Source: an uncultured bacterium
Lineage (GTDB): Bacteria; UBA8481
Direction of reading: 5' to 3'
Length of the DNA: 64,000 bases
Assembly (NCBI GenBank): GCA_964499705.1
Contig: CAZCME010000003.1
Span: 186,001-250,000, forward strand
The position numbers and the translations under genes are program-made. Shown in pieces: positions 29,855 to 29,991 of this stretch. The first letter of the stretch is position 1; each line of letters opens with the position of its first letter. The notes under the pieces were generated by a model. It was not told the origin of the DNA. It did not search any database and saw only the letters and a list, made by a program, of their open reading frames with translations.

Positions 29855-29890
29855 AAAAAAAAACGGCGGAGCCCCGTCGGGGTCCGCCGT
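29855..29890 (-). terminator. Rho-independent terminator
   Basis: ACGGCGGACCCCGACGGGGCTCCGCCGT followed by a long T run on the minus strand. Confidence 0.85.
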
Positions 29891-29958
29891 GAATTATACC
29901 GAGTGGTTTTATGCGTTCGCTGGGAGGGGGGTGCGATCCGCCATCCACCACCGCGTAA
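29855..29958 (-). ncRNA. Candidate sigma28-dependent small RNA (~100 nt)
   Basis: Lies between a sigma28-like promoter and a strong terminator; hairpin with CCCCCCUCCC loop. Confidence 0.5.
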
Positions 29959-29963
29959 TTCCT

Positions 29964-29991
29964 CTATCGTCCCGGCGGCGAAAAACCTTTA
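29964..29991 (-). promoter_or_regulatory. sigma28-type promoter
   Basis: TAAA-N16-GACGATAG, same geometry as the flgB promoter. Confidence 0.55.

Follow-up and report, generated by a model that had tools for sequence, protein, structure and literature searches.

Sigma-28-dependent small RNAs (sRNAs) described in Escherichia coli include UhpU, MotR, FliX and FlgO, and MotR and FliX are reported to pair inside coding sequences (CDS) (PMC10578931). In Campylobacter jejuni, dependence on FliA is described for the sRNA CJnc170 (FlmR) (PMC11187230) as well as for the paralogs CjNC1/CjNC4 (PMC4626219). Among sRNAs with C-rich loops, the alphaproteobacterial cuckoo/RSs0680 (CcsR) family consists of two to four adjacent hairpins, each with a CCUCCUCCC loop, and is proposed to occlude ribosome-binding sites, with at least one member bound by Hfq (PMC4615179), and the actinobacterial 6C sRNA is described with several C-rich loops and no chaperone (PMC6486639). 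Here we analyzed a locus at positions 29991-29855 on the minus strand of a 64,000-nt stretch of DNA from an uncultured bacterium (GTDB lineage UBA8481; assembly GCA_964499705.1, contig CAZCME010000003.1, positions 186,001 to 250,000; hereafter the window). It had been put forward in a preliminary description as a candidate sigma-28-driven sRNA with an anti-Shine-Dalgarno loop upstream of purA, and the comparisons below make it highly probable that the locus is an independent, conserved non-coding RNA gene of about 100 nt.

The candidate RNA resembles the four E. coli sRNAs in its likely transcription by the flagellar sigma factor; those sRNAs are characterized in their source as Hfq-associated base-pairing modulators of flagellar synthesis. 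Unlike these four, which are described as derived from mRNA untranslated regions (UTRs) (PMC10578931), it appears as a free-standing intergenic gene with a putative C-rich hairpin-loop seed in an unrelated lineage, and it has no sequence or Rfam relation to them. In layout it is like CJnc170 and CjNC1/CjNC4, which stand alone, carry sigma-28 promoters and are, according to the respective reports, predicted or shown to act on earlier-class flagellar genes, the same late-to-early feedback that is proposed here (PMC11187230, PMC4626219). The targets given for the C. jejuni sRNAs are the 5' UTRs of sigma-54 genes, whereas the candidate site of the present RNA lies within a CDS, the promoter of the candidate target looks sigma-70-like and no sequence similarity was observed. 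With the cuckoo family it shares an anti-Shine-Dalgarno-like C-rich loop and stems that vary by compensatory change, but the RNA has a single C-rich hairpin with the loop core CCCCUCCC and differs in promoter class and taxon, which places it outside that family as described (PMC4615179). Similarly, 6C has C-rich loops with a short G-C-rich seed and is reported to pair with G-rich single-stranded mRNA including G-rich ribosome-binding sites; it differs from our RNA in the number of such loops (one here), in phylum and, as far as its description goes, in having no link to sigma-28 (PMC6486639). The 6C covariance model gave no match at the locus even at E <= 10, and the RNA is not a member of the 6C family.

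The search against Rfam 15 called for in the preliminary description returned no family at the gathering threshold, neither in the 64-kb window nor in the four homologous loci identified below. In E-value mode only noise was obtained, the best being Xoo2 with 18.2 bits against a gathering threshold of 45 and reaching barely beyond the terminator; further sub-threshold matches (SAM-II, Mnt IRES, ylbH and Collinsella-1) were likewise discarded. A search of one paper library found no paper that pairs the names of this lineage with sRNA or small RNA. The locus would therefore represent a family that is new within a known kind of sRNA, with no sequence or model in common with the sRNAs compared above.

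The features of the locus are as follows, all RNA elements being on the minus strand.

29964..29991 (-): sigma-28 (FliA)-type promoter, with the -35 element TAAAGGTT at 29991-29984, a 12-nt spacer and the -10 element GACGATAG at 29971-29964
30000-29996 (-): A-tract just 5' of the promoter
29855..29958 (-): putative RNA, about 100 nt long, with both ends predicted and the 3' end in the T-run
29902..29952 (-): conserved irregular hairpin with helices P1 (GGUGGU/ACCACU), P2 (GCG/CGC) and P3 ((U)CGC/GCG(A))
29921..29932 (-): 12-nt apical loop ACCCCCCUCCCA, closed by the P1-P3 stems
29929-29922 (-): loop core CCCCUCCC, the presumed seed for G-rich sites
29891..29901 (-): A/U-rich single-stranded linker separating hairpin and terminator, a possible contact for Hfq together with the U-tail
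29855..29889 (-): intrinsic terminator, CGGCGGACCCC-GAC-GGGGCUCCGCCG at 29889-29864 followed by nine T at 29863-29855
28564..29811 (-): purA (adenylosuccinate synthetase; ATG at 29811; Pfam PF00709, E 5.5e-152), the downstream neighbour outside the unit
30104..31021 (+): YkuD-type L,D-transpeptidase gene (Pfam PF03734), the divergent upstream neighbour

Promoter, stems, C-rich loop and terminator were thus all present, by direct reading and by folding, where the preliminary description had placed them, and the promoter given there as TAAA-N16-GACGATAG corresponds to TAAAGGTT-n12-GACGATAG (n, spacer nucleotides) at 29991-29964. The 5' end of the transcript was placed about 6-9 nt past the -10 element. 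The whole unit is housed in the 292-nt intergenic spacer between purA and the divergent ykuD gene. Its terminator, which was also detected by a terminator scan, has a G+C-rich stem of 11 bp out of 12 and a GAC loop. No open reading frame (ORF) ends at this terminator, and the closest gene on its upstream side points the other way; the terminator must therefore be that of a transcript initiated within the spacer.

We compared the home genome of the window (G000) with four relatives (G001-G004), the five together representing a phylum-level group. A DNA search with the entire 292-nt spacer gave matches in three of 41 genomes, its own included, and the alignments covered promoter and RNA alone (query 103-253 and 145-250, corresponding to window 30001-29851 and 29959-29854). 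A covariance model (R1), for which the window and two of the relatives supplied the sequences, detected a single strong copy per genome in all five members of the group; in a wider sample of 151 genomes the same five were found and none of the other 146. The match in the window spans 29962-29852 with 119 bits (E 4e-31). An additional match in G002 (L010, 31 bits) consists of a tRNA-like stretch and a similar terminator and was treated as false. An exact-pattern scan of 185,579 species genomes returned 70 loci, four of which were true according to the model and were counted as the known relatives on the basis of identical bit scores; the other 66 were chance matches, mostly in G+C-rich genomes. 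The same scan of a metagenome collection gave 62 loci with one true copy, its score equal to that of the G001 copy. The pattern scans yielded no new members, so the power of the covariation analysis stays at five sequences. The family is thus real but tiny, with five known genomes of a rare lineage.

Conservation at closer range was apparent when 29700-30200 was compared with DNA contigs of public sequencing runs, in those from a close relative in run X7; among the runs listed as containing the stretch, none was of RNA. One contig covers 29858-30171 with 33 differences; among the 25 of these that are listed, none falls within 29858-29978 (RNA, -10 element and part of the spacer), two are in the promoter spacer (29979 and 29980) and the rest are at >=30003. 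In another X7 contig there are differences at 29806, 29836, 29839 and 29849, just beyond the T-run. In this near relative, divergence thus halts on reaching either edge of the predicted unit.

The locus L010 mentioned above deserves a brief description of its own. At L010:1501-1629 (+) (G002:C10) a T-arm-like GGTTCAAATCC and a CAT in a possible anticodon loop are followed by a strong terminator. The stretch received no ARAGORN call and had no Rfam match; it is possibly a tRNA that has degenerated, or else an RNA resembling one.

Folding and covariation across relatives, the second check proposed in the preliminary description, were both in favour of a structured RNA. The 116-nt RNA folds with -45.1 kcal/mol compared to -35.2 +/- 3.6 in dinucleotide shuffles (z = -2.79), and three of 200 shuffles folded equally well; that the element stands above chance is therefore owed mainly to its conservation and not to the fold alone. 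The irregular hairpin was recovered in minimum free energy and centroid folds as well as by RNAalifold with three sequences. In alignment A4, which comprises five sequences fitted to the model built from three of them, standard pairs made up 89.1% of the pair cells (79.4 +/- 1.9 in column shuffles) and 11 of 26 pairs had changes on both sides (4.8 +/- 1.5 in shuffles), with neither value being matched in any of 500 shuffles. When the partners were slid by 1-3 columns as a control, pairing fell to 30.6-54.1%. Helix P1 is 100% paired over the five sequences with three of its six pairs changed on both sides, as in G003, which has GGUGAC/GUCACC in place of GUGGUG/CACCAC, and in the terminator helix, where pairing reaches 91.5% in the five genomes, four of the 12 pairs have changes on both sides. 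The loop core CCCCUCCC is invariant in all five genomes and predicted to be unpaired in all five RNAs (mean probability 0.99-1.0). An A/U-rich stretch, unpaired or weakly paired in the folds, is found at the position of the linker in each sequence, and terminator and U-run are present in every copy. Given five related genomes and a model-fitted alignment, the covariation is support and not proof of the structure.

The compensatory changes also bear on the possibility that the block is a DNA-level element, in which a shared ykuD regulatory region and a bidirectional terminator would account for the conservation without a functional RNA. The YkuD gene is indeed the steadier neighbour and serves as a syntenic anchor, being divergent from the element in four of the five genomes (the window protein is 51% identical to the G002 neighbour and 40% to that of G001), and in G002 a convergent gene ends right next to the terminator, which could serve it. 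G004, on the other hand, retains the RNA element without a YkuD neighbour, 147-230 nt of unconserved sequence separate the conserved block from the ykuD starts, and the preservation of four helices by compensatory change points to selection on RNA structure. We consider a purely DNA-level role very improbable.

The preliminary description took the RNA for a unit separate from purA, and comparison of the five loci bore this out: promoter, loop and terminator are retained in all five genomes while the downstream genes vary. The downstream gene is purA in the window and, at a distance of about 190 nt judged from the start of the Pfam match, in G004; it is an OmpA-family gene in G003 and a DUF4139-like gene in G001, and in G002 the RNA is followed by the end of a convergent thioredoxin-like gene. 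With purA 3' of the RNA in only two of five genomes, this variety argues that the RNA is not a purA leader. Control in cis, in which transcription from this same promoter would yield a leader or attenuator of the gene that follows (purA in the window) and the terminator would decide on read-through, would nevertheless fit the 43 nt between terminator end and purA ATG, the presence of purA downstream of the element also in G004, the most distant relative, and the co-orientation of the next gene in four of the five genomes. It would also fit the outcome of a sigma-70 scan, which found no promoter-like site between terminator and purA or anywhere in 29000-31000, so that the -10 box previously assigned to purA itself was not recovered. 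This explanation is opposed by the three genomes with another downstream gene, convergent in the case of G002, and by the purA loci of G002 and G003 (two contig-end pieces in the latter), which had no match to the RNA model nearby in the DNA fetched; in G001, an assembly of 86% completeness, no purA was found. Conserved anti-terminator pairing was not observed, as G001 lacks the GGGG that the window and G002 have in their terminators, and no riboswitch or leader family of Rfam matched. Purine-specific control by a flagellar sigma promoter would also be hardly sensible. The constant gene association of a purA riboswitch or attenuator is absent, and a leader function appears quite improbable.

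Two further observations concern the surroundings of the locus. Genes for an NTP_transf_5 protein and a thioredoxin-like protein are syntenic between the window (26676-28505 (+)) and G002 (L002:19-1490 (+)); only in the window does purA lie between this block and the RNA, which indicates that purA has moved relative to the block. An HNH endonuclease gene is present near the RNA locus in the window (31391-32038 (+)) and in the distant relative G004 (L009:2128-2883 (+)).

The E. coli sigma-28 consensus is given as TAAAGTTT-n11-GCCGATAA (PMC2859248). The corresponding promoters of the five RNA copies read as follows.

Window (G000): TAAAGGTT, n12, GACGATAG
G001: TAAAGTTT, n11, GTCGATAA
G002: TAAAGTTT, n12, TCCGATGA
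G003: TCAAGTTT, n13, GCCGATAA
G004: TCAAGTCT, n12, ACCGATTA

In the five-way alignment A5 the upstream A-tract, CT(A/C)AAG and CGAT are retained in all five RNA promoters. A relaxed version of the sigma-28 motif occurs 33 times in G000, and the same motif with n12 spacers precedes the genes identified by Pfam as FlgM, FliD, FlaG and flgB-like (Flg_bb_rod), so that the geometry noted earlier for the flgB promoter extends to flgM, fliD and flaG. The motif was also observed 5' of flaG and flagellin genes in the relatives G001, G002 and G004. FliA exceeded the curated cut-off in four of the five genomes, the G002 sequence being a fragment at a contig end, and flagellins and CsrA are encoded in all five. 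The RNA promoter thus resembles the sigma-28 consensus and is of the type found at the late flagellar genes of the lineage itself. Judged by this resemblance, the RNA is likely under the lineage's own flagellar promoter and dependent on sigma-28.

Several other promoters of this type were encountered. That of the flgB-like rod gene (20117-19701 (-)), TAAAGTTC-n12-GCCGATGG at 20153-20126 (-), ends 8 nt 5' of the ATG, which would leave the mRNA almost without a leader unless the real start is further inside; for a rod gene, control by sigma-28 would be unusual. Sigma-28-type promoters are also present 5' of a DUF5610 protein gene (G000:C1:248670 (-), L224), possibly an unrecognised member of the flagellar regulon, and 5' of a 60-amino acid (aa) ORF without Pfam match (G000:C20:29850 (+), L225), another possible regulon member. 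The flagellin cluster of the home genome (G000:C5:217517-228489) comprises four flagellin genes, flaG, csrA (226253-226408) and hook-associated genes. The distance from csrA to a flagellin-family match is within about 0.4-0.7 kb in four genomes and about 1.7 kb in G001, a proximity that hints at a partner switch of the FliW-CsrA-flagellin type.

In the CsrA sponges known to date, GGA motifs are numerous and displayed in loops. The preliminary description had counted three GGA motifs in the RNA and considered a CsrA sponge; the 111 nt actually hold four GGA triplets. Across the five copies the triplets number 4, 1, 2, 4 and 2, their positions are not homologous and none is in the apical loop. 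This lack of conservation argues against a CsrA sponge, and the multiple conserved loop GGA motifs of the CsrB/RsmZ type are missing. More broadly, the RNA could be a protein-binding decoy, either a CsrA sponge acting through GGA or the ligand of another protein that reads the C-rich loop. CsrA is encoded in all five genomes and near a flagellin-family match in four, the window copy holds four GGA triplets, and a protein site would likewise be visible as an invariant loop sequence. The invariant element is C-rich, however, the opposite of a CsrA site, the GGA counts follow no conserved pattern, and the data suggest no protein partner. A decoy function therefore has a slim chance in our view. 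Of the earlier proposal, the sigma-28-type sRNA with an exposed anti-Shine-Dalgarno-like C-rich loop was supported by every in-silico test applied, among them the presence of promoter, loop and terminator in all five genomes next to differing downstream genes, the promoter type in common with flgM, fliD, flaG and a flgB-like gene and the lack of an Rfam family; its sponge alternative was not supported.

The same applies to a proposed 11-codon ORF, which exists in the window with an ATG start. The other four copies are without this ATG, and the peptide reading fails on that count. That the locus encodes a small protein through this or another short frame is further contradicted by G003, which has stops in all three frames, by the absence of any frame that is open through the hairpin in all five copies and by the lack of a Shine-Dalgarno sequence before the ATG. 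We give this explanation virtually no credence.

With respect to an sRNA function, Hfq (PF17209) was found over the cut-off in all five genomes, and the sequence features of an Hfq-type sRNA (terminator with U-tail, A/U-rich stretch and an Hfq gene in the genome) are in place. The architecture of a 5' hairpin-loop seed, an A/U linker and a U-tailed terminator is that of a classical trans-acting Hfq-type sRNA. To our knowledge C. jejuni lacks Hfq. We propose that RNA polymerase carrying FliA (sigma-28) would start transcription at TAAAGGTT-n12-GACGATAG and that the transcript would fold into one long irregular hairpin whose 12-nt loop always presents CCCCUCCC single-stranded. The RNA would then act in trans, probably together with Hfq, by pairing of the C-rich loop with G-rich stretches of mRNAs, and other genes would thereby be regulated in step with the late phase of flagellar assembly. 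We lean towards loop-mediated base pairing as the way in which the RNA works.

Potential targets were sought by several routes. Scans of G000 with crude ORFs and RNAduplex were dominated by spurious ORFs and long-loop duplexes, and because scans of the G+C-rich home genome were uninformative the AT-rich relative G001 was used. Only eight GGGAGGGG sites were found in G001, compared to seven for a reversed control. Among these, one is the antisense of the RNA gene itself, one is inside a tRNA-Lys gene, one is at the Shine-Dalgarno sequence of a CBM_11-like lipoprotein and four have no conserved counterpart in G000 (two unconserved, one without a G000 homologue and one in no long ORF), while the remaining site falls in the gene of a flagellar protein of 233 aa that contains Flg_bb_rod, FlgE/F/G-D1 and C-terminal rod domains.

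Other candidates were rejected. The 8-mer at the lipoprotein Shine-Dalgarno sequence was not retained in the homologues examined (G000, two in G002, and G003), and no homologue was found in G004. A 12-nt perfect complement in scpA lies within the CDS and is unconserved in four orthologs, and the ykuD leaders had no conserved complementarity to the loop. In the flagellar loci L143-L165, stricter 7-mers gave no recurrent Shine-Dalgarno site except at one flagellin.

The flagellar protein is an orphan rod paralog that scores over the FlgEFG subfamily cut-off and under the FlgG and FlgF equivalog cut-offs. Its gene in the home genome is located at G000:C22:6289-6981 (-) (L191:2290-2982), with orthologs in L175, L187, L188 and L189, and the proteins have 232/233 aa. 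Orthologs in the clade are 52-60% identical, and the best homologues in the 146 other genomes reach <=43%; these are too distant for a codon control, most of them being unaligned over residues 35-46. The gene is seemingly monocistronic with a TTGACT-n17-TATATT-like (sigma-70-like) promoter, read by eye. GGGAGGGG is present at CDS nt 136-143 in all five orthologs, within the codons CC(C/G) GG(G/C) GGG AGG GG(A/C), which encode Pro-Gly-Gly-Arg-Gly throughout. In the codon alignment of 233 codons, 245 of 699 nt are invariant, and the two longest invariant runs of 8 nt each are the GGGAGGGG site and the start ATGGATGG. At only three of 56 conserved four- or six-fold-degenerate columns do all five orthologs use the same codon, namely Gly46 GGG, Arg47 AGG and Pro60 CCC; in G000 as a whole, GGG accounts for 15% of the Gly codons and AGG for 10% of the Arg codons. 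The complementary site is thus frozen in silico at the level of synonymous codons. Cognate duplexes between loop and site were predicted at -26 to -35 kcal/mol, a range that excludes unfolding costs. On these grounds the clade-specific FlgE/F/G-family rod paralog is our leading but still tentative candidate for a true target.

Weaker target candidates than the rod paralog are the Shine-Dalgarno regions of fliD and the flagellin-family genes. The fliD leader has CCCAAGGAGGGGU at the ribosome-binding site in G000-G003 and GGAGGGAGGAG in G004, and the flagellin-family genes have GGGAGGG or GGAGGG at the Shine-Dalgarno position. The 13-nt CCCAAGGAGGGGU is identical in four genomes (L284, L285, L289 and L287) between which FliD identity is about 58-61% in the parts that match. 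This block looks like a CsrA-type site (CAAGGA) that overlaps the Shine-Dalgarno sequence.

A number of points weigh against the sRNA interpretation or parts of it. The promoter class is assigned by resemblance, with a spacer of n12 compared to n11 in E. coli and a -10 element that matches at six of eight positions. The two members of the family that are most distant (window and G004) both have purA after the RNA, which may be the ancestral layout, and some read-through into purA or a contribution in cis there may occur. Because the sample consists of five related genomes and A4 is fitted to the model, the covariation counts overstate independence. Complements of the loop were not enriched among 7-mers across the genome of G001 (37 vs 44 in the control and 36 vs 36 in the control). 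The seed match between loop and rod gene is just 8 nt (9 in G004), the predicted accessibility of the site in the rod mRNA is below the 8-mer median (percentile 0.17-0.33), and a constraint other than an sRNA could freeze the GGG-AGG codons. The complementarity at fliD and the flagellins can be explained equally well by a strong Shine-Dalgarno sequence or a CsrA site, and that of fliD is not kept in G004. Finally, the 16S 3' end was not found in the assembly, so that the loop is not comparable with the real anti-Shine-Dalgarno sequence.

Even with these reservations, we favour on balance the combined statement that the locus is an independent sigma-28-dependent sRNA that pairs via its loop, leaving the specific target aside. 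A more detailed scheme, which we regard as speculative and rather doubtful in its entirety, is a feedback by a late-flagellar sRNA: after activation of FliA, CCCCUCCC would pair with GGGAGGGG in the CDS of the early rod paralog and adjust its synthesis in a lineage-restricted manner, and the loop may also cover Shine-Dalgarno or CsrA-type sites of fliD and the flagellins, thereby competing with CsrA for late mRNAs.

Beyond a handful of cultured phyla, hardly any regulatory RNAs are known. For this RNA a promoter class, a structure, a putative seed and a candidate target could be defined from the genome sequences, which makes it testable in another host, with no need to grow the organism itself. 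Should the target be true, the rod paralog would be a further case of an sRNA pairing deep in a CDS, visible here as frozen synonymous codons, and such a signature could then reveal sRNA targets in uncultured bacteria generally.

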